A stretch of 64,000 nt of DNA from Octopus vulgaris (Eukaryota): positions 15,624,001 to 15,688,000 of the forward strand of contig OX597826.1 of the NCBI GenBank assembly GCA_951406725.2, read 5' to 3'. The translations under genes were made by a program, and so were the position numbers. Positions within the stretch are counted from its first letter, which is position 1. Each line of letters begins with the position of its first letter. Below, piece by piece: positions 4,730-64,000 of this stretch. The notes below the pieces were generated by a model that saw only the letters and a list, made by a program, of their open reading frames with translations, had not been told where the DNA came from and made no database searches.

Positions 4730-4900
4730 TTAAAAGTAAGAAAGCAAAGGTCAAAAGAACGTACATATGAAATGTATTCGCTCAGCTCTCAGTATAAGGC
4801 GGAAGAGAAAGAGTGGTTGTCGAAACGTTTCGAGCCCGGCTCTTTATCATGAATAGGATGAAGGAAAGATCGGGAGAAAGAAAAACGTTTAAGAAAAACA
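4730..4900 (-). mobile_element. Short non-coding repeat with degenerate HHR-like motif (GAGC-loop-GCTC-GAAACGT family)
   Basis: Minus strand reads ATGATAAA-GAGC-CGG-GCTC-GAAACGTT at about 4823-4850; same architecture at 17455-17490 and 22653-22690. Confidence 0.5.
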
Positions 4901-5036: not shown

Positions 5037-5112
5037 TGCCACGCAGTGAGACTGAACCCGGAACCTTGTGGTTCGTAAGCAAGCTACTTACTACACAGCC
5101 ACTCCTATGCCT
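5037..5112 (-). mobile_element. SINE family A, tRNA-like head only
   Basis: Reverse complement matches the 5' end of the full copy at 21863-22265. Confidence 0.85.
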
Positions 5113-7631
5113 ATAAAAATGATAAACAATCTTAATCAATTGTTGAACCTGATTGGATTCTCATCAGAGGCATCCACATCATTCTGAAAACACAGCCTTT
5201 AACTGACTGACAATTAGGTATATACTCACAGAACCAACTGTTCCAATTATTATTAGTATAAATGTAAATTCCTAATCCGGATTTAAAAGCTGGAGTTGTC
5301 AATAGTTAGCTTCTTTCTCTTTGATTTTTAAAGAGATATTCAAGTCAGCAGGACAGTTGCCAAAACAACAATATCTGGCCTGTTATGTTTACACTACACA
5401 AGTGATTTGAGGGCAATGTTCCACTACTATTACGTGTGCTGATATTTGTATGCGTATTCAATAACAGGGGGAATGCTGTTATCTATTCCAGGAAAGTGTT
5501 TTTTTTCCCGGAGAACATCATGCCGCATAGGGGTGTAGTACCTTCATGACACATGCTTCTAATCACATGTGATGTCTTCCACAAAAATATGGCACATGTG
5601 TGTATGTATGTATGCATGTGTGTATGTGCGCGTTTGTGTGTGTGTGTGTGCGTGTGTATGTGTATGTATATGAGTGTGCATCTGCGCGCTCGTGGGCGTG
5701 CGTCTACATGTATTTCTTGAAAATAACACTTTCTGAAGAATATAGAAAACTATTGTTACTCTAGCGTTTGTCACATCTGAAGCTCTTACAATACAATGCG
5801 ATTTCTGTAATATCATTGCAGTGATTCATTTACCAAATTCTTTGCACATTTTTGTTTTTGATACAGTATATAGAAGAACGAGATAGTATGTAGCAATGAT
5901 ACTATCATATTTATCTTAATGCGATGGTCTTCGAACAATTACCAGAATGCATATTATTATATACTACGCTAAACATGATACAGTTTTCTGTTTGTTTACA
6001 CATCCCGCAACACCTGCTGCCACAGCATTAGAAGGAAGTGTATACTTTGTTCCGAAGATGTAGAAATTTGCGCGCATGGTAAATGGTAGCAATTTCGTTT
6101 TCTTAACTGTGCTGAATAGATATATCATTCATACGTCAATGATAAACTAGGAAATTAAAAATTGATTCACGAATTTCCGCAATGTTCGCGTGTTGTGTGC
6201 GTATGTGCGTGTGTATCTATGTGTGTGTATGTGTGCTTGTGGGCTTTTGTATATATATATATATATATATCTGTTTTTGTGTTTTGAAGTCGCAAAGTCG
6301 CAAACTATAGCATAAACGTAATTACAAAAACACAAATTTCATAACTTGCAAAATTAACACAGCAATGTCATTCGGCAAACTGCCTCATAAAGGTGCTGCC
6401 ATCCGATGGTCCTCTACATAATTATTAGTCCGGGGACTAGATGTTCTGAGATTTTTATCATCCATCAGACTTACTATGACCCTTAGTGAGACATTGTTCT
6501 CAACCTGGAAGAGAATTATGATAAAAATAAAAAAAAGAAACGAAAAAAGGGCAAGAAAAGGATTTCCGGCCGCATTGCAAGTAAGGGAATCTAACTTATT
6601 GGTCAAGTCTCAGTAACCAGCATCCTACTGTCTGTCTTCACAAACATATTGTCATTTCAATTTGTAGCTTCACCTGCAACAAAGGTGTGATAGGGAAATT
6701 GCTAGTTGCTTATCATCTCCACGTAGACTCCCTACGAAAGCAGTCACATCTATTCTCGTCACTCATATCCGTAATTCAACTTTCCGATCTGCAATATTAA
6801 CTACAAACAAATCTGTCTGTTAGAAAATACCTACCAATTGGAATTAGCTTTCAGTTCATGTTTTTCTGCAGACATTAATTTGCAGACGTTCAAACAGGAC
6901 ACCATTTCACTAGTCTCAGAAGTCTTGGAAAAGGCAAGGGAAGTGCCCGTTCCGCCTCGCTAAGCTATAAACAATTTTGATCAATTGTTGTTGTTGTCTC
7001 ACTTCACTCGCATCATTAAACATTTCGATGCTTATCACCATCACATTGTGGGAAAGTAAGAACCTAATATATCGAGCCACAGCGGTATATAAAACTAACT
7101 AGAAGATTTAAGCGGGATGATGAGCTCAAGTTGAACGTATCTTTAGATAATATAATCCTGCTGAACATAGCAAAAATAACTTCAGATTTTGTTAACTTCA
7201 CACAAGATATACTAACTTATAATAGGATAAATCACGTCTCTGTTTAACTGGGATAAATATTAACTCACAGAAACTGTTCTTCCCAAAAATTGCTACTGAT
7301 AGAGAAATTGTCTGTCCACTTCCTTTATTTTCCGATTAGCAGAAAGGGTTCTAGAGGTGAAATCATGATAAATCAAATCAAACGTGGATAGAAAACAAAT
7401 ATTTTACGTGCAAAGAAAAGGGAAATTAAACACGCTTTCATGAACAACCATTTTTCACCCTTTTTTTTTTCTTTATGTCTATCTTTTTCTCTTTCTCACT
7501 TTTCTTTTCATTATTCCCTCCGGTGAAATTTTTTCACCATTCTACTATTTAATTCTTAACTTTTCGTTCTATTTTTTTCTCATTTGCTATGATTTTAACA
7601 TTCTTTTATTATGTTCTCACCGTGTTGCTAT

Positions 7632-8480: not shown

Positions 8481-8913
8481 TATCTGTGACTGTTTGCTTT
8501 CTATTCTTAATCATTTCAACTCAGCACTAACAGATTATGATGATACGTTGCCTTTCCGTGTTATCTAAATTTTAATCTTAAGAAATACTTCACAAAATTT
8601 TATTTTCATACAAAGTGATAAATATTTGTTTGAGTATATTAGATTTAAGAAATCATTGTTCTAATGTAATGCTTCCCAAACTTTTACACAATGGTTGACT
8701 TTTATGTAAATGACTTTTCCCCACAGACCACGTTTAATATGCTTATCCTTATATATATATACCAATTAAGGACTGAACAGGAAAAGTGGACAGTCAACAT
8801 GCTAGATATAGACGTCAAATCGCCATTCTCCACAAAATATTATGTTCTCAAATCAAACTCAGCACAAAACCAAAGCAATAAACAAGTGAAAATATACGAA
8901 ATAAAATAATTAC

Positions 8914-8977
8914 CCATGTACTGATCAGTTTCGGCTATTATTATCCGCAAGGATAACTGTAGCATTCATCAGCATGG
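8914..8977 (-). ncRNA. Type I hammerhead ribozyme fold, near canonical
   Basis: Minus: CCAUG-CUGAUGA-A-uGCUA-cag-UUAUCC-uugc-GGAUAA-uaa-UAGCc-GAAAC-UGAUCA-GUA/CAUGG. Stem I 5 bp, bipartite stem II with a first-pair mismatch, palindromic stem III ACUGAUCAGU. Lies in a ~250-bp segment between TA runs (8762-9008). Confidence 0.75.
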
Positions 8978-9065
8978 CCTGTTATAAATGCAATTTGCTG
9001 GACTAGATGTATATATATATACATTATTTACATATGACGGATATTTGTCCTCATCTTGTTTGTTG

Positions 9066-9115
9066 TTAACACTACGTTTCGGTTGATATACTCTCCACCC
9101 TTCATCAGGATTCCT
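9066..9115 (-). ncRNA. Minimal PLE-type hammerhead motif, stem I eroded
   Basis: Minus: CUGAUGA-AG-GGUGG-agaguaua-UCAACC-GAAAC-GUA/GUGUU, in the PLE 3' UTR. Confidence 0.6.
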
Positions 9116-9166
9116 GGGGAAATTTCGAACATGGGTTCTCATTCCAAAGGTATTTTTCGATGCTGC

Positions 9167-9183
9167 CGTTGTTGTTGTTGTTG

Positions 9184-9236
<53 letters not shown>

Positions 9237-9239
9237 GTT
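9167..9239. repeat. (GTT)n(ATT)n microsatellite
   Basis: Directly visible. Confidence 0.95.
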
Positions 9240-9241
9240 CA

Positions 9242-9314
9242 GGTCACTGCCTGAGATCTAACTCGGAATTTTGAGGTTATTAGCAAGCGCACTTAACCAC
9301 TACGCCATATGGCC
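9242..9314 (-). pseudogene. tRNA-like module (anticodon loop CT-AAT-AA, Ile-like) inside the PLE 3' UTR
   Basis: 73 nt with A-box TGGCGTAGTGG, T-arm CCGAG-TTAGATC-TCAGG and imperfect acceptor pairing; stems mismatched, so not a functional tRNA. Confidence 0.65.
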
Positions 9315-10264
9315 GTGGGCAATTATGGAGTGAATTTTAGGGCCTATAAATCTTATTTTTTCCTATCCTTCCATAACACTGGTCCCCATATGCTACTCAT
9401 ATCTGCACTCAGTCTGCTTAGGAGATTGCTGTGTCCAAGATTATGTGCTGCTTCTTTTAGTTTTCGTATTTTCCAGTGGTGTTCTCTGTCTATTATTTTA
9501 ACTTCATCCATCAGGGGGGAGGTGGTCTTCATTTTCCCATATATGATCAGCTATACCCGATTTATCAGTGTCACAGTTTTACGATGTTCGTCTACCCTTA
9601 TTTTGAAAGGGCGGCATGTTTAGCCTCTGTAAAACCTACCCCATATGCATGGGATGGAGTACAATCAGTCTTTTATCACATTCTCTTCTATTGGTGGTTT
9701 TACTAGAAGGAGATATTTACAAAGTATTGTATTGCTCTGGAATACTGTCCTGATGTCATATGGGCCGCATATCCTTTGTATATTTTCGGAGAAGCCTTTC
9801 ACATAGGTTAGGCAGATTATGGACAGTTTATTGGTTTCATCCTTTCTTTTCTTCATAACTGGAGTGGATAGTATACTTTTGGGGTAGTTGTTGCTTAATA
9901 GATTGTTATTGAGCTTGATCATTTCTTCGTGGTATCACGATCGCTGCCTAAAAAAGATTGAGCAAAGAATATAAGAAGCGCGCACAAGCACACACACGCA
10001 CATCTACACATACACACACACACACACACATACACACATACACACACTCACTCACACACGCACACACACAGTTACATGTTCTTTGCACGCGTACTCGCCA
10101 AAATATGAGAATAGGCTCACTTGTTATTTTACACAAGAACTGGTAGAGACTTTATTAACACTCACAGAGATCGGGCTCAAAGGAATGCATTAACAGTATT
10201 TCTACCATTCTAACAAAAGTGTTAATCATGGAAACAAGTTTCCTGGCTATATGATGCGAGTCGT

Positions 10265-11748: not shown

Positions 11749-12027
11749 ATATATAGAAAATAGTAAAAACTGAAAAACTACAGAAGGCTTAAAGGTTAAA
11801 AAATATATATATTTTCGTCAATATGTCTGAAGAATATTAAAAATTTTTTATAACGTCGTAAGAAATTTGAAAAGCTAAACGCGAAACCGGTCTTTCTTCT
11901 AAACTATATCATTGTAAGGAGAAAAAAAAAGAAAAAAAGAATTTTTAACATTCTTCAGACATATTGACGCAAATATATATATTCTTTAACCTTTAAGCCT
12001 TCTGTAGTTTTTTCAGTTTTTACTATT

Positions 12028-12038
<11 letters not shown>
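11749..12038. repeat. ~97-bp inverted repeat with ~95-bp spacer containing an HHR-like motif
   Basis: 11749-11845 is the reverse complement of 11940-12038 with about 4 differences; spacer has AAGAAA-T-TTGAAAA-GC-TAAAC-GC-GAAACCGGTC-TTTCTT. Confidence 0.9.
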
Positions 12039-12232: not shown

Positions 12233-12838
12233 TTTTTATTGCTGAAAAAAGCGAAACTGCAGTCTAAGATGAACAGAGTTAGTAAAATTTTTTATTTTCA
12301 TTTCGCTAAATTTATCAAGCTTCTGTGTTTCTAGTACATACTTCGCCTTTAATGTACTTATATATGAATAATATATGGCCTGTGCTAGAAACACCAGCGA
12401 TAATAATTAATTTTATTTTATCGCATTTCGAATTTGTTTACATATTTCTCGATAAATTTTGAGCGTTAGACTATATACCAGAATTCCCTAGTTTGTCGGG
12501 TTCGTTCTGCATCTGCGCAGTGATCTGATTAGTTAGAAAGAGCAAATTAGTAGACGCACATGTGTCTATCGAGTTGCGTTTCATAATAACAGGAATCTTA
12601 CTGAAGAGCCTACTTGAGTAAATAAATATTATTTTTATTGCTGAAAAAGGCGAAACTGCAGTCTAAGATGAACAGAGTTAGTAAAAGTTTTTATTTTCAT
12701 TTCGCAAAATTTATCAAGCTTCTGTGTTTCTAGTACTTACTTCGCCTTTAATGTACTTATATATGAATAATATATGGCCTGTGCTAGAAACACCAGCGAT
12801 AATAATTAATTTTATTTTATCGCATTTTGAATTTGTTT

Positions 12839-14975: not shown

Positions 14976-16386
14976 ATTCCATACATTTTCATGTGAGGGA
15001 ATCAGTTTTTTGTGTGTATGTGTGAGTACATATGTGAGATTATGTATCGGTGTGAGCGTGTTTAAAAAAAAACATATATATTACTGAAAAAAAGGAAAAA
15101 ATCCGTAACATATACCCATGATCGTATTACACATGTTCAATAAAACATGCACTTACATGTGTACGCATGTGTCCCCTGTGCAAATATACGTATATGTGTA
15201 TGTATATATGTGTAGTATGGCCCTGTGTGTACATGTGTGTCAATGGCTGTGTTTATGTGTGTAGTTGCGCGCGTGTTGTGTATGACACTTGATACATGTC
15301 ATATGAAACAAAAGCAGATATTGAAAATAACACAAAAGGCTTATTTGGTTTCCCAATCATGTTACTTATAAATATCAAATAGATGGAATGAACAGAAATT
15401 ACTCTAAATAATTAAAACGAAGTGATAATTGCTTTGCTGAGCGGAAAATACTTTATATAAGAGAAAATGATAGAAATATATGATGGATTGCATTTATAAC
15501 ATTCGCTATTGTTGTCCTGTTACGATAAAAGAAACGATCAATCTAATTTATCACATGCTGCTCCTATATTATTAATTGTATGCGCGTCTAAATCCATTTG
15601 ACCCTTTAAAACTTTTATATTTATCTTTATCATTATGAGTTGCCCATGCATATTTGAATTCAATTAACCTGCAGTAGCAGAGGATCAATTTCTTCCGCTT
15701 AATGAGTATTACATAGTGTGTCGTTTAAAGTTCAAAATAGGACATGGAAGAAATATTGTAACAACGATATTTTAGTTTCTCTTGAAGTGGTATAACATAT
15801 TTATTGTATTTTGATAAAGTTTATTTTAACATTATTGTAGTTTTCTAATCAAGTATCTTTCTGCCGTTCTTCTAGTGCATCTCTTTATTATAGTTTTTCA
15901 CTTGTGTGTATATTCATCACAATTCGCCGCGGAGCAAATGCAGTAATTGTGGTTGGAATATACAAACATACATACAGACAGACATGTGTGTATGTATGTA
16001 TGCGAACATACATACACACATTCACCTACGACTGGTACAAATTCACATTTACCTACGACTGGTAAGGGCGGGTACTCACTTTCCATGGCGTATATGAATG
16101 ACCGAGAACAAATTTCTTCCTTGCGGGACGAAGGTCTCTTGCTGAATTCAAGGCCTGCAATTTTGAGCAGTGATAGAAGGCAAATCTATCATTCAGCAAT
16201 AGTTATTTAATTACACCGGCATTCACCATAAAGAAGAAATATAAAAAGTCTCTAAATGTGACTAGGTTATTAAGGAATACCTACATTGCTAGAAATAAGA
16301 GCTAAACCGCTCTAATACTGCAAACAACGCACCTGAATGAAAACATGTATACACTAACAAGGACCAAAAGTGCCAATCGTGAATTT

Positions 16387-16435
16387 TTGACACTGACGAG
16401 TCAGTTTCGGCAATTTCTGTTGCCTCCTCAGTTAA
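16387..16435 (-). ncRNA. Hammerhead fold, probably inactive (G at position 17, stem I cut by a SINE junction)
   Basis: Minus: UUAA-CUGAGGA-GGCAA-cagaaa-UUGCC-GAA-ACUGAC-uc-GUCAGU-G-UCAA. Confidence 0.65.
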
Positions 16436-16535: not shown

Positions 16536-16616
<81 letters not shown>

Positions 16617-16778
16617 GACGGGTTCTTTCAGTTTCCATCTACCAAATCCACTGACAAGGCTTTCGGCGCCCCAAGGCTATAGAAGAAGACACTTGCCCAA
16701 GATGTCACACAATGGGACTGAACACGGTACTATGTGGTTGGTAAGAAAGTTACTTACCACACAGCCACTCCTGTGCCT
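16432..16778 (-). mobile_element. SINE family A, 3'-truncated, expanded internal microsatellite
   Basis: AGAAGACACTTGCCCAAG and CTTACCACACAGCCACTCCTGTGCC match the reverse complement of 21863-22265. Confidence 0.9.
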
Positions 16779-17054
16779 ATATACATGCATGCATCCATCC
16801 ATACATACATACATAAATACTTGCACGCACATATGGATAAGTTTTAGTAACAGAAGTAGATCTGGTACCGAATTGCAATTTGCTTATCCTATTTTAAGTG
16901 GATATACTGTAAGAACACAATAACACTACAAAAACTATCATAAGAAGCTCTCTCCTATTGATATATTGTGCTAGAAAGCATAGAAGTATCAGCAGAGAAC
17001 TGAAATAGACACATATCTATATCTATATCTATATCTATTGATATATAGCAATAT

Positions 17055-21820: not shown

Positions 21821-22640
21821 GGATCTTTTCGGTTTGAATGGCAGGTTTTAACATAATTTCTAGGCGCAGGAGAGGCTGTGTGGTAAAGTAGCTTGCTAAC
21901 CAACCACATGGTTCCGGGTTCAGTCCCACTGCGTGGCAACTTGGGCAAGTGTCTTCTGCTATAGCCCCGACCAATGCCTTGTGAGTGGATTTGGTAGACG
22001 GAAAATGAAAGAAGTCTGTCGTATATATGTATATATATATATGAATGTGTGTGTGTGTTTGTGTATCTGTGTTTGTCCCCCTAGCATTGCTTGACAACCG
22101 ATGCTGGTGTGTTTATGCCCCCGTCACTTAGCGGTTCGGCAAAAGAGACCGATAAAATAAGTACTGGGCTTCCGAAGAATAAGTCCCGGGGTCGATGTGC
22201 TCGACTAAAGGTGATCCTCCAGCATGGCCGCAGTCAAATGACTGAAACAAGTAAAATAGAAAGAGAGAATGAGTAACTAGACACATTTAAACTTCGTATA
22301 CTGGTAGAATGTGTTTATAAAAGATCTTTTTCTCTTGGCTTTATTGAGAAAATTCTATAGTTTGTAAGATATTTGTGGTTTTTTCTTCAATTTCTGCAAT
22401 TTCAACCAATCAATGACGTCTATTGAGGTGAAAACATTCTGTGCCGTATGAAAATGCCCCTCGTTTAAGAAACAGATTGGGTTTATTTATATTTGTGAAG
22501 AAAAAAGATACCCTTCCCCCCAGCACTAACCCTAACCCTAAAAGAGATTGAAATGTAATAGATCGATTCTAGGGTCATAATTATGGGTGACAATTTCATA
22601 TGACACCGCTAGAAAAACTGTCGTTCAAACCGAAAAATCC
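21821..22640. mobile_element. MITE with ~28-bp terminal inverted repeats
   Basis: GGATCTTTTCGGTTTGAATGGCAGGTTTT versus AAAAACTGTCGTTCAAACCGAAAAATCC; internal CTAACCCTAACCCTAA; interrupted by a SINE. Confidence 0.85.
21863..22265 (+). mobile_element. SINE family A, full length (tRNA head, CORE-like segment, internal microsatellite)
   Basis: A-box-like GGCTGTGTGGT, B-box GGTTCAGTCCC, CORE-like CTTGGGCAAGTGTCTT, tail CAAATGACTGAAACAAGTAAAA; six copies in the window. Confidence 0.92.
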
Positions 22641-23049: not shown

Positions 23050-23387
23050 ACTCTTTACTCTTTTACATGTTTCAATCATGTGACTGTGGCCATGCTGGAG
23101 CACCGCCTTTAGTCGAGGAAACCTACCCCAGGACTTATTCTTTGTATGCCTAGTACTTATTCTATCGGTCTGTTTTGCCGAACCGCTAAGTGACGCGGAC
23201 GTAAACACACCAGCATCGGTTGTCAAGTGATGTTGGGGGGACACAGACACACAAACATATACACCCACACATATAAATACATATACCTATATACAGCGGT
23301 ATTCTTTCAGTTTACGACTACCTAATCCACTCACAAGGCTTTGGTCGGCCCCAGGCTATAGTAGAAGACACTTGCCCAATATGTCAC
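23050..23387 (-). mobile_element. SINE family A, 5'-truncated
   Basis: Reverse complement of about 21940-22265. Confidence 0.92.
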
Positions 23388-23499
23388 GGAAGGCATTGAG
23401 GGTAGGGTAGAGTGGTCGTAGGTAAAGGAAATGGGAGACAGGTAAGGATGGGGCAGGTGTAAGAAGAAATAATTTCAATTGGTAATTGGATGCATCTTT

Positions 23500-38789: not shown

Positions 38790-39905
38790 ATACAACGCTG
38801 GTCATAATGCGCCCCATCCCTTCTTGATTGTGGAATTATTTTCCATCTTGATCCAAATTGATTGACTTAAATCTTCTCCCTATCTTTGTGGAGGCGTCCC
38901 AAGTGTCTTTTCTGTGGGCAATTGCGCTGGTGTCTGTAAATATTGCAATACATCGGTCCCAGCAGAACTTGTGTTTTTCGTGCTTTGCCGTCACATCGTT
39001 CACTCTGCACCGATCTCGAGTCATATCATTTCTAATATGCTCTGATAATGATATGTCTCGCAAAGATCTTCCCATGGCCCTTTGCCTCTTAACCATTTGA
39101 TGTTCTGTACTCTTTGTAGAAGGCCACGTCTCACTTGCATTTAAGAGCGCAGGTACGACCGTGCTGTTGAAGAATCTGGCATGTATACTTTTAGTCAAGT
39201 TTTGTACAAGTCGATTCTTGAGTTCAATGCATTTTCTCCTGCTCTTATTCTGTTTGAAATTTTAGCATCCTTACCTCGGTCCATCTTCACTGTGTGCACT
39301 AAGTAGACGTACTCATTTTCCTATTCGATTTCATCGGTTCATTTTAAGACCTATCGCTAAGCCCTGAACCTCCAGCTCTGTCAGTATGACCTCCAGCCCA
39401 TCTGTAACTTCAGCCACTTGTACAATATCATATACGATTCGGAGGTGCATTAGTTGCCTACCATTTATGTTCACACCACCTGTCCAGAAAATGCACTTGA
39501 TAACCATTTCCACACATAAGCTAATGAACTTTGGAAAATAGTATCTCCTTTCTTGACACTGTTCTCAGTTAGAACCCTTACTGGTGGTGATAGTAGAAGC
39601 ATATCTATTGTGCATCCAGAGTTCACATCTCCTAGTCTTTTCATGCACTGCGCCTCGACAGCTTGCATTTCCAGAAATTTGAACACCGGTTTCATATCGA
39701 TGCTATCGAAGTCCATTTCGAAATCAATAAAAGCGATATATACAGAAGATTGATTTTGTTCTTTAGTCGTATGAGTCGTGGTAAAGTCAATATGTGATCT
39801 ATCGTACCATATTTCTTATGGAAACCTGCTTGTTCTGTCGGCTGTTTGTCGTCGAAGTATTTTCAAAGACTGGTGACAATGACCTTCGTAAATAAATTAT
39901 AAAGT
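38790..39905 (-). mobile_element. RTE-clade LINE fragment, degenerate
   Basis: QAGFHKKYGTIDH, GGVNINGRQLMHLRIVYDIV, ARFFNSTVVPALLNASETW; same type as 1224-2160 but more decayed. Confidence 0.88.
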
Positions 39906-50759: not shown

Positions 50760-50959
50760 CCAGATGATAGTGACAGTTTTACTTTTAACAACGTATGATG
50801 TTCATACTAGTAAGCATTTACTAGTATGTAGTATTTACCTATTTTCTAATATAAATACTGTCCTAACCTATTTTGGCGAATTTTGTATTCGTTTGGTGTC
50901 AACACAGGACATCCCGAGACGCGATGGTCTATTGTTTCCTCAACGTTATCGCAATTTTC
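50760..50959 (-). mobile_element. R4/Dong-like LINE fragment (CCHC knuckle and RH motif region)
   Basis: CDNVEETIDHRVSGCPVLTPNEYKIRQNRLGQYLY*KIGKYY..YEHH..KTVTIIW. Confidence 0.8.
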
Positions 50960-51081
<122 letters not shown>

Positions 51082-52374: not shown

Positions 52375-54265
52375 CTAATACGTAGTACTCCATGTTGTTG
52401 GATATGCCGTACCATACTTTCACTATGTGCTTGTTGAAGATATTGTGGTACTTATGTGTTTTGGGGAAGCACCTATCTAAAGCTGCAGGGAATTATTTAC
52501 TTATCTTAGCTGATATTTGCAATCTGAAAGAATGTGTTATACCATATGACCTTGGAAATTTTGTGTTTTTTTGTTTTGGTCCCTTTAGCCTATTTTGTGT
52601 GTTGTTGGCATCTTGTGAATCACCCACTTTAGGTGTGTGGGTGTTAGAATTATTTAGGGCTTCGCTAGGTGTGAACTTGATTTTTCCCTTAATGCTTCAT
52701 TGTAGTAAGGCGTATGTATGTTGACTCTTGTTTGGGTGGCTGATAAGCGTGATATTCTGGTGGCTATGTTCCTACCTATTCTTTTGGTTACATATAGTGG
52801 ATGATTGAACTTTACATTCATGTATCGAAGACACTCGTTCGATTTGTAGTATGGCTCGTACATCCCGGTTTCTAAGTTCAGAAAAGCATTTAGTAAATTT
52901 ACCTAACGGTAATTACTGCCTATAGTTATAGACAGACAGAAATTCCTATATAATCTGTGTAGTTCCTTTCTGTATCTCTCTATTTCTACTCTAGTATAAT
53001 TATCTACTACAAAAAGGGCAATCGTCTCTGTATAGACTACTCACCGCTATTTGTGAGAATGAGGATTTGATGTGGAAAAAGATATGAATTCCTACGATAT
53101 CCGTGACCTGAGCTGAGTCATTCGAACCCATTGGTATATCAAAGGAATTCGTTCCATCTGATCTCATCCATAGTTTGTTGTCGTAATTAATAAGAGTTTC
53201 TCATGCTGTTAATATTATGTTTACATATGACTTAGATAACGTATAACTTTTTATTATAAATGTGAGTGTCTATTGAATATTATAGGGTTAATTTTAGAGT
53301 AGTAGTTATCTATATCCAATTGTATTAATTTGGAGATTTTGTATATTGGATTTACTTAAATCATACTATTACCTCCTGCGACTCAAACCATAAAGAAAGT
53401 CCAATCTTAATTAAAAGTTTGGACATTATTTTATCTATGATTGTTTTGCTTATACATTCTGTGCCCTATTTCGGTGGACATATTAATCTGCGTTTAAGGT
53501 CGTAATCGAAGGTATTTTTGTGGTCTTTAAGATTTATCCTAGGTTTTCTTGGGACATATGGTTCTGTGCTATCGTCTATCTCCAGTCTTTTTACTATTTC
53601 AAATGCTTTGTTGTTTATATTAGTTAAAGTGATGTTGGGTGTATTTTTGTATTTGCTAAGGGTTTCTGTTTTTACCTAGATTATTATATAGTGTGGTGTT
53701 TACAATAATAAGGTTACTACCATTGCATTTGAGTTTTTAAAAACCTCCAGTATTTTTCCAATTTTTGTTGGTGTTCTCGTTGTTCCTTGTTGGGTATATC
53801 CAGAATTTGATGTATTGTTTTAAAATTTTGTAGAGTTCTTCTTCGAATTGCGTCAGGTGTTGATTTGTTGGTGGGTTTCTCAGGAATTTGAATTATTTCT
53901 TGAATGCGTCTTCTTCCTTCTAGTGCTCCTGCGTGCTGTTTTTCTTGTCGTGGAACAATGCTTTCCATCTCATTCTTCTTATGTTGGCTCACAGTTGTTT
54001 TAAGTGTTCGTTTTAGGTTGGTATGAGAATATCTTTTAGTGAGAAGTCGAGGGTTAGTTTCTCCATCCCCTGTCTCTCTGTAGTATTTTAATGGTAAAAG
54101 CGACTTCGACCGGCTTTCTGGTTTCTGTCAGTATTAGTTATGGCATATTCTGTGAAGAGCGTAGTAGAGTACAGTATAAAGCTCGTCCACGTTCACATTG
54201 AACCTGTGCTATCCAGTATTAGATGATTGTTATACCATACTCTGTTACGTTCTTAACAAAATATA

Positions 54266-54734: not shown

Positions 54735-54890
54735 GGAAGTCTTTTTTATTCTCTTTCTGTTTATTTCATTGTGTTCCTTTCTGCTAAAAAGTGTATTTTC
54801 TCACCTTCCTGAGTGTCAAACTAATACAGCTGCTTGTTGTTCATACACTTGTCTTCGTCTTTTGTTTTTCTGTAAATTGCAACTATATAT
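54735..54890 (+). mobile_element. Short HHR-family repeat with most of the ribozyme deleted
   Basis: GTGTTCCTTTCTG and TGTCTTCGTCTTTTGTTTTT match 17395-17590, but GCTCGAAACGTAAAAG is missing. Confidence 0.7.
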
Positions 54891-54896
54891 ACATAC

Positions 54897-55021
54897 ACGC
54901 GACGGGCTTCTTTCAGTTTCGGTCCGAGGCAATGGTAGTAGGCACATGCTCAAGATGCCACATAGTGAAACTGAACCCGGAACCATGAGACTGAGAAGCA
55001 AACTTCTTACAACACAACCAC
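54897..55021 (-). mobile_element. SINE family A fragment with internal deletions
   Basis: CGACGGGCTTCTTTCAGTTTC and CTGAACCCGGAACCATG. Confidence 0.8.
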
Positions 55022-56389
55022 TTGGACATTCTTTGTATATCCATTACACGACATATTATTCAAATAAATAATTTTAAATAATTCGAATACGGGGACACTG
55101 CTTGAACCTGAATGTCGAAAAAGTATTGATTGAAAAACGGACACATTTGCAGAAATTGTTTGAATACATTCAGAAATGCATATTATCATTTCTGACAAAT
55201 TGGACATTTTCATAGCCAGGAAGGAAATTAAGGTTTTTCTGCATTAAATTTCTTTGGTAAACATGAATATAATGCACTCTCTAGGAAGACATCAACGAAT
55301 TAGACAAAACATTAGCATATATACTTTGACGTTCGAAAATATCCTGCGGATACACACGCACACACAGGTATGTACGTACATATATATATATATATATTTG
55401 CCTACATCCGTACATAGTTATCATTTTTGCTTAACCTGAAACAATGTTATTGTAGATAGCAAATAAGTTATTTCATTTTCACAATATTGTTATTAAATTA
55501 TATAACGTGTATTTTTTGGTTTTATATTTGAGAATTACATCGTTGACGTTATGTTGTGAGGTAAATTTAAGCCTTACGATTGCAATTTGTTATCATAGTT
55601 TAGAAATGGATTTCATTTGAAACAGCCGGGTTACCAAAATATTGCGTTACTTTTGCGCATTAGGGATATATTCTGTGGCGAGCTTAACCCAGAAAAGGAA
55701 ACGAAGTTGTATTCAAGGATATGTAATAATCTTCATCTGCAGATTAGTTTCGAATGATAAAGCATTATACATAATAAATATTATAGCATACACGCTATGT
55801 CTCATAAATACAGAGCTTATGGTATTCTGGGTTCCAAGTATAATGTAACTATGGTGTAGACGTATTAAAAAAAATACTAAAATACGTAAAAGGAAATAAA
55901 GAAAACTAAAAAAGATTCACTTGTGTCTTCTGTGTTTGATCAAAGACGGAACTAAATGACAGTAATTATTTAAACTATCATTAATTGCAACATTTTTCCT
56001 AAGCTATACACACACACATGCATATATAGACAGATACATATATATTTATATTGACAATGTGGTATTTAGGCTTGTTGCTTACTTTGGCTGAGTATTATAG
56101 GAAATCTTTCTCAACGTCTCAGAACCCTTCACTTCTGAGAAATCGACTGTATGAATCAAAATAATCTGTGTTTGATGGAATTTGTTGGGGAGAAAATCCC
56201 TACATTTTAATTGTCATTTTTAATCCGCTTATTTTGAACATTTATTATTTGGGGCAAGTGTATAGCATTTACTATTTTGGATAACAGATTAACTTACTAT
56301 ATGCGCAGAAAATTTTATTAATTCATGAAACAGAAGCATATGATAGGACACTGACATTCAAACACTATAGTAAGTTTTTTAACAGAGAG

Positions 56390-63301: not shown

Positions 63302-63708
63302 TTACTCTTTTAATTGTTTCAGTCATTTGACTGCAGCCATGCTGGAGCAACACCTTTAGTTCAGCAAAGCGACCCAGGACTTATTTTTTGTAAGCCTAGT
63401 ACTTATTATATCGGTCTCTTTTGCCGAGCCACTAAGTTACGGGGACGTAAACACACCAGTATCGGTTGTCAAGCGAAGTTGGGGGGACAAACAGAGACAC
63501 ACAAACACACACACCTATATATATACATATATATATATATACATATATATATATACATATACATATATACGACGGGCTTCTTTCAGTTTCCGTCTACCAA
63601 ATCCACTCACAAAGTTTTGGTCGGCTCGAGGCTATAGTAGAATAGATTTGCCCAAGGTGCCACGCAGTCGTACTGAACCCGGAAGCATGTTGCTGGAAAG
63701 CAAGCTAT
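63302..63708 (-). mobile_element. SINE family A, nearly full length
   Basis: Reverse complement of 21863-22265 except for the first ~20 nt. Confidence 0.92.
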
Positions 63709-64000
63709 TTATTTAATTTTATTTGCCATAAAGAAAGTACATAGAGTAGCTGCGAGCTGGACAAGTACATTAATGAATGAAAATGAAATAAAATGAATAA
63801 ATGAGAGACGAAACCCAACGCCCGCCGATTGGATTTTTCTCGAAAACATATTCTTTTTTTAAAACTCAACATGAGTTTTCAAACCTCTAGCAAAAAGGAG
63901 GCACTAAAACCTCTTATTTAACATGATTTTCTTTTTAAAAACATAATTGAGGTTATAAACCACTACAAATAAGGCAAAAATATGAGGTTTCAAACCCTCT

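Follow-up and report, generated by a model that had tools for sequence, protein, structure and literature searches.

A tRNA-like module joined to the open reading frame end of an abundant Penelope-like element family in octopus

Hammerhead ribozymes are a known component of the pseudo-LTRs of Penelope elements, where a minimal architecture has been described (PMC4209133). In the PAc element of Anolis, according to the account of its structure, the hammerhead overlaps the start of the open reading frame (ORF), and reverse transcription begins 111–118 nt into that ORF, placing the start of Penelope reverse transcription in the ORF-start region (PMC11167929). Also known are schistosome repeats that pair a Pol III promoter with a hammerhead, and terminal repeats of TRIMp3 elements that contain tRNA or 5S sequences; insertion of a SINE into the terminal repeat has been proposed as the origin of Cassandra, Ajax and Helenus (PMC10886601). 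Non-LTR retrozymes have in turn been proposed to be derivatives of Penelope pseudo-LTRs (bioRxiv 10.64898/2026.07.22.740005). The repeat annotation of O. vulgaris includes 190 Penelope-like consensus sequences making up 6.83% of the genome; in the portions of that report that treat these sequences their ends are undescribed (PMC13282606).

Here we describe an element within a 64-kb stretch of Octopus vulgaris DNA (the window: contig OX597826.1, positions 15,624,001 to 15,688,000; coordinates below are window positions). The element lies on the minus strand and comprises, in its own direction, a GIY-YIG remnant (9353–9944), a spacer of 38 nt from the stop codon (9315–9352), a tRNA-like head of 73 nt (9242–9314), the word TGAAC followed by a trinucleotide tract (9168–9241) and a hammerhead-bearing tail of 146 nt (9022–9167), with a (TA)6 run at 9010–9021 marking the apparent 3' end. 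The tract consists of (AAT)16 at 9236–9189 and (AAC)7 at 9188–9168. The stop codon, TAA, occupies 9355–9353. A preliminary description had placed a tRNA-like module about 40 nt after the GIY-YIG stop and, behind it, (AAT)n(AAC)n, a hammerhead motif and a TA run; the gap proves to be 38 nt and the other parts are all found in that place, on the minus strand. No target-site duplication was seen at the (TA)6 end, and none flanks the module in the window copy (seed 7, minimum length 10). There is no second LTR within 8600–10100, and no second copy of the head and tail within the 64-kb window.

Other repeats and retroelement remnants are present in the window. An (AAT)41 tract at 50960–51081 was considered as a relative of the module and rejected, as its flanks are unrelated to those of the (AAT)16 tract. 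It abuts a decayed coding-like fragment (50850–50960, minus strand) that we take to be non-LTR retroelement-like, and decayed frames at 38839–39815 and 53720–54127 (both minus strand) are presumably remnants of retroelements with a reverse transcriptase (RT). An imperfect inverted repeat of about 290 nt (11749–12037) is possibly what is left of a fold-back transposon.

The ORF remnant retains the 3' part of the reading frame only, namely the RT–endonuclease linker and the GIY-YIG endonuclease, and Pfam found no domain in it. Stops interrupt the frame at 9667 and 9622, and there are frameshifts near 9568 and 9514. With its two stops read as X, the remnant has 829 relatives by phmmer (E≤0.001) among 1.84 billion representatives, the closest with 63% identity and, by its source name, from Octopus sinensis. 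Residues 608–803 of an 806-aa relative (P0163) align to 9934–9365 with 50% identity (tblastn, E 7e-50); this protein carries RVT_1, and the matching region is C-terminal to the RT. Another relative (P0052) has RVT_1 plus a GIY-YIG match that falls under the Pfam cut-off. Comparison with solved structures gave weak RT matches only, a word-index protein search with an 89-aa fragment found nothing, and an alignment of the ORF protein detected no relatives in viral and prokaryote contigs.

For assignment to a clade, the criteria as given in PMC8557442 are two cysteines of the CCHH motif inside GIY-YIG and the absence of a CX2-5CxxC zinc finger in the linker. In alignments inspected by eye, the CxC of CCHH is present in the relatives, with the second C missing from the window copy, and the relatives have no linker zinc finger. 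Because of these two features the family points to the EN+ Penelope-like elements of Penelope/Poseidon type, an assignment made by motifs alone. At the truncated end, the ORF runs into 31 nt (9945–9975, plus strand) that are an inverted piece of the family's ORF, the usual form of a Penelope 5' end: loose ends of other copies behind 9933 and 9945 match the reverse complement of 9945–9975, and read depth drops there. The window copy is thus a 5'-truncated, decayed member of an abundant Penelope-like family.

The tail contains a minimal type I hammerhead (9068–9114, minus strand) with the architecture described for Penelope pseudo-LTRs (PMC4209133). Its core spans 9108–9073, with CUGAUGA from 9108, GAAAC at 9080–9076 and a predicted cut after 9073; one extra base precedes stem II, and the pair G10.1–C11.1 and a palindromic ACGU are present. 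By eye, stem II has 5 of 6 pairs and stem I, which is damaged in this copy, 3 of 5. The fold is no better than that of shuffled sequences (z 0.47), and Rfam gave no match to this hammerhead. The core motif occurs four times in the window, against an expectation of 0.17. About 20 nt before the core is the word GTTCGA (9135–9130, minus strand), which is found likewise in a distant family (loci L004, L018 and L021 and their sister loci), thus in two families only; the word resembles a B box, and pairing with the CGAAAC of the core is another possibility.

Adjacent to the element, past the TA run, is a second hammerhead (8914–8977, minus strand) that belongs to a different element and is better formed, with 5 of 5 pairs in stem I, a palindromic stem III and a fold z of -2.97 (equalled by 3 of 200 shuffles). 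Its element has no other BLAST match within the window. Further motifs of this kind were noted elsewhere. One at 12595–12672 (plus strand) has a 6-bp stem I, a palindromic stem III and a long loop II, and the letters upstream resemble those of the motif at 8972. Another, at 16380–16435 (minus strand), has perfect stems II and III and apparently interrupts SINE-like sequence; it is probably inactive because there is a G at the cleavage position. A degenerate minimal-hammerhead remnant of another Penelope-type end lies at 4780–4860 (minus strand).

The head was described in advance as a 73-nt module with A and B boxes. Its length, tRNA spacing and A box (9307–9297, exact) hold, and the B box (9262–9254) does not, as it has two mismatches in the window copy. 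The acceptor stem preserves 5 of 7 pairs, the D stem 4 of 4, the anticodon stem 1 of 4 and the T stem 3 of 5. ARAGORN found no tRNA, even at -ps70, Rfam returned no match at E≤10, and the head folds no better than shuffles (z 0.21). The Rfam result carries little information, because a SINE-like head at 21860, used as a control, is missed as well. An A box together with a B box of at most one mismatch is expected by chance 0.42 times per window, and the B box of the window copy has two; the A box alone is matched four times in the 64-kb window. Taken by itself, the head of the window copy is not beyond chance.

These results would suit a head that is ordinary pseudo-LTR sequence, of no tRNA origin, in which a likeness to A and B boxes arose by chance: neither ARAGORN nor Rfam nor folding gives a positive result for the window copy, and the A box has four matches in the 64-kb window. 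We regard this as very improbable, however, given the 73-nt tRNA spacing, the intact D stem and largely preserved acceptor stem, and a canonical B box at the correct distance in other copies of the family (see below). Moreover, local alignment of the head with heads of the window's common SINE-like family scores 45 and 44, above the shuffled maxima of 31–36, and those heads too are invisible to Rfam. Six copies of this SINE-like family were recognized (5037–5113, 16561–16779, 21860–22100, 23217–23388, 54884–55022 and 63463–63710). The likeness is confined to the heads, where it is weak; the SINE-like family continues into a different body. We base the probable tRNA origin of the head on its tRNA spacing, the canonical B box elsewhere in the family and the likeness to SINE-like heads. 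Any frame of the head and spacer compared with 183 proteins scored no higher than shuffles, and a probe for mis-called ORFs of other copies, made from the antisense frame that crosses the head, gave one candidate and no match. DNA patterns made from the head and tail had no match in metagenome, prokaryote or viral contigs.

Whether the module belongs to the family or to this one copy was addressed with public runs. Twenty-four runs from four organisms were listed, none with more than 29% of the words of the stretch, so the reads and contigs that align come mostly from other copies. Four of the 24 were aligned to 9225–9975, which comprises the ORF end, the head and the first microsatellite units: 6832, 6780 and 5393 contigs aligned from organisms A, B and C, respectively, and 3664 RNA reads. 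The RNA reads come from a cDNA library in which the two directions are nearly balanced (0.51–0.59). Within the element, depth sums to about 1e4 to 1e6, and beyond 9952 to 100–300, a fall of about a thousandfold; depth summed over contigs reflects abundance, not copy number, and varies about tenfold with the alignability of the diverged window copy. In the DNA runs, differing letters occur at 87–91 of about 720 places, which puts the window copy no more than about 12% away from the majority.

Depth shows no break at the junction of head and spacer, and the bin that holds the junction is among the deepest; over the spacer it equals that of the neighbours in all four runs. Contigs span the junction (X1 record 1, 9244–9497; X8 record 17, 9260–9409, both among the 24 pieces listed of 19162). 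Loose ends at 9275–9292 represent the family's own version of the head, and the B box is canonical in one of them (X24, at 9275; 172 RNA reads, possibly from one locus). Another 102 RNA reads (X24, at 9226) leave the head, cross an AAT/AAC tract shorter than that of the window copy and enter sequence matching 9151–9159 of the window, and so share the start of the tail. The aligned stretch stops before the end of the microsatellite and the tail, and this single loose-end row from one run is the link between head and hammerhead in other copies. The module is therefore joined to the ORF end across an abundant family in three related organisms.

The preliminary description named, as the finding that would refute it, other copies lacking the module; other copies carry it at the depth of the family, contrary to what would be seen if a SINE or tRNA pseudogene had entered this copy alone, once the element was in place. 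A one-off insertion has some appeal, because a head with a simple-repeat tail has the shape of such an insertion and because removal of the module restores the spacing seen in relatives. We reject it as scarcely credible: the junction is at family depth in three organisms and is spanned by contigs, the joints listed include none that leaves out the head (loss of the entire module would be invisible on the aligned stretch), and the module has no target-site duplication.

A module with a promoter-like head could also spread alone, as a Penelope-dependent SINE whose head-to-tail Pol III transcripts are copied by the protein of the element, leaving many copies that start at the head. Such a transcript would include the 3' region where Penelope reverse transcription, in the account for Anolis, starts (PMC11167929), it would contain no TTTT, and the pairing of Pol III transcription with a hammerhead has a precedent in schistosome repeats (reviewed in PMC6765202). 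In the RNA run, the head is covered 1.13 times as deeply as the sequence immediately upstream. This small RNA excess would equally fit the usual 5' truncation or expression of a few loci, and head depth in the three DNA runs is 0.52, 0.80 and 0.68 of that upstream. There is no pile-up of molecule ends at 9314 or elsewhere in the four aligned runs, and no loose end falls on 9314, the first base of the head, among the best 24 of 1409 rows. A large population of such SINEs, one of two uses suggested in the preliminary description, is therefore unsupported, and we consider independent spread quite unlikely; as alignability is uneven along the diverged window copy, there may be a small minority of head-starting copies.

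The timing of the gain was approached through distant relatives of the ORF. The best 80 of 156 loci, mostly from two assembly series, are 28–51% identical to the query; 48 of them reach the ORF end, and among these a hammerhead core is present in 14. The distance from ORF end to core is 77–129 nt in ten of the 14 (22, 37, 203 and 404 nt in the other four), compared with 245 nt in the window, or 98 nt if the module is taken out. None of the 48 loci has a strict pair of A and B boxes, a pattern that would miss the window copy too. In a closer sister family, represented by the mis-called protein P0013, there is no trinucleotide tract in the approximately 120 nt upstream of the hammerhead. As the distant relatives leave no room for the module between ORF end and hammerhead, it was probably gained in this lineage. 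The outgroup is a weak one: the 14 hammerhead loci represent two families, 13 of them belong to one family, in which some loci recur in two assemblies, and the whole set of 80 is remote from the query.

The tail that follows the microsatellite is probably the start of an ORF, because it could be aligned to the N-terminal region of a full-length relative. A frame that begins with the ATG at 9142 and stays open past the hammerhead as far as the element's end aligns with residues 23–53 of the 861-aa P0174; its score of 51 was reached by 4 of 5000 shuffles. This is a modest test, as in 60 shuffles the highest score against all 184 proteins was 41 on average and 54 at most. The same frame had no match in six other long relatives. 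An ATG at 9105, inside the hammerhead core as in Anolis PAc, was also tried; it matched no N-terminus among the seven long relatives, and the frame from 9142 is the better candidate. If the tail is the ORF start, what had been called a 3' UTR would double as the 5' leader of the next unit in a tandem, and the head would lie about 170 nt upstream of that unit's start codon.

This arrangement bears on the second suggested use of the module, as promoter for the next tandem unit. The suggestion gains positional support, since the sequence past the microsatellite is probably an ORF start; Pol III activity itself is putative. In its full form, the head of the upstream pseudo-LTR would be a working Pol III promoter, like the 5S sequence of Cassandra, and transcription would read through the ORF into the next pseudo-LTR to give the template for reverse transcription. 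The location of the head just upstream of the probable ORF start agrees with this, as do the undamaged B box of other copies and the broken stems of the window copy, and Penelope promoters are placed in the pseudo-LTR in the accounts consulted (PMC8557442, PMC6765202). The sense strand from 9945 to 9022 has a single TTTT (9634–9631), and about 99% of the depth has another base at 9632, so that in most copies this site would not stop Pol III. The scarcity of TTTT is not significant, however, since there is none in 62% of shuffles of the head and tail and in 18% of shuffles of the whole stretch. Relatives apparently manage without the module. Pol III RNA is, as a rule, short and uncapped. For TRIMp3, Kojima argues that the autonomous partners necessarily depend on Pol II (PMC10886601). 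On balance we find a working promoter doubtful. It is correspondingly unlikely that an ORF-bearing Penelope family has switched to a tRNA-derived Pol III promoter that crosses the hammerhead and a terminator-free ORF to make the transposition template. If it had, the element would be an autonomous retroelement driven by Pol III, from which Sm-alpha-like and tRNA-bearing tandem parasites could readily arise.

The reading we prefer, with a probability of roughly 0.6, is that the tRNA-derived module was captured once by the founder of the family and has since been copied as a passenger of the 3' end of the element. We infer that a short tRNA-derived retroposon, consisting of a head and a simple-repeat tail, would have entered the pseudo-LTR of the founder between the stop codon and the hammerhead. 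Reverse transcription would start downstream, in the tail that holds the ORF start, as the Anolis work locates it for Penelope (PMC11167929); because the start is downstream of the module, every new copy would inherit the module, useful or not. In intact copies, binding of Pol III factors and short transcripts over the hammerhead would still be probable, and the window copy, to judge from its damaged B box, would probably not recruit Pol III. Capture is favored by the broken cloverleaf stems of the window copy and by the proposed SINE-insertion origin of some TRIMp3 repeats. Counting against it are the missing target-site duplication of the module and the failure to find, within the window, a free donor SINE with such a head and tail. 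The canonical B box kept in other copies speaks against a mere passenger, and the position of the module, where Penelope promoters lie, fits use as well as carriage.

If the module is merely a passenger, its significance is modest. Nevertheless, a coding Penelope family whose pseudo-LTR has a promoter-like module, probably of small-RNA origin, as a fixed part could plausibly represent an intermediate stage through which repeats combining Pol III promoters with hammerheads arise from Penelope ends. Promoters of small-RNA origin are otherwise known from SINEs, from non-autonomous LTR elements and from the hammerhead repeats of schistosomes. Such modules may also be misfiled as SINEs in octopus repeat libraries although they are Penelope ends. 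The octopus SINEs OK, OR1 and OR2, reportedly described by Ohshima and Okada in 1994, are said to have tRNA-derived heads, and OK also a block of trinucleotide repeats. The module has a head of probable tRNA origin, which resembles that of a common SINE-like family in the window whose body differs.

The family is like described EN+ Penelope/Poseidon elements (PMC8557442, PMC4209133, and Anolis PAc in PMC11167929), as far as those accounts set out the features, in the placement of GIY-YIG C-terminal to the RT in its relatives, the minimal pseudo-LTR hammerhead overlapping the probable ORF start, the 5' truncation with an inverted piece and the AT-rich site. It differs from the Penelope elements in these accounts in having a tRNA-like head and a trinucleotide tract inside the pseudo-LTR; the word "tRNA" does not occur in PMC4209133. 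Full-text literature searches brought up no coding Penelope family described as having a tRNA-like head within its pseudo-LTR, and Repbase, Dfam or the Zenodo library of PMC13282606 may already contain the octopus family. Like the type I hammerheads of animal non-LTR retrozymes (PMC7229834; bioRxiv 10.64898/2026.07.22.740005), that of the octopus family is of type I. Retrozymes, as portrayed in the relevant passages, are non-coding tandem units with a hammerhead in each and no described tRNA-like head, whereas the window copy is single and joined to an ORF.

Parallels to the putative promoter come from outside the Penelope elements. TRIMp3 elements (Cassandra, Helenus and Ajax; PMC10886601) have a Pol III promoter derived from a small RNA in a terminal repeat, for which an origin by SINE insertion is proposed. 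In the description given there they are non-autonomous LTR elements with a PBS, a PPT and target-site duplications of 4–5 bp, in contrast to the single terminal module on a Penelope ORF, in an ORF-bearing family, that we describe. The schistosome Sm-alpha and Sj-alpha repeats resemble the octopus module in that a Pol III-type promoter, putative in octopus, is followed by a hammerhead. These repeats, as characterized in the review (PMC6765202), are non-coding and often tandem, whereas the octopus module, of which no free population was seen, is joined to a coding Penelope ORF.
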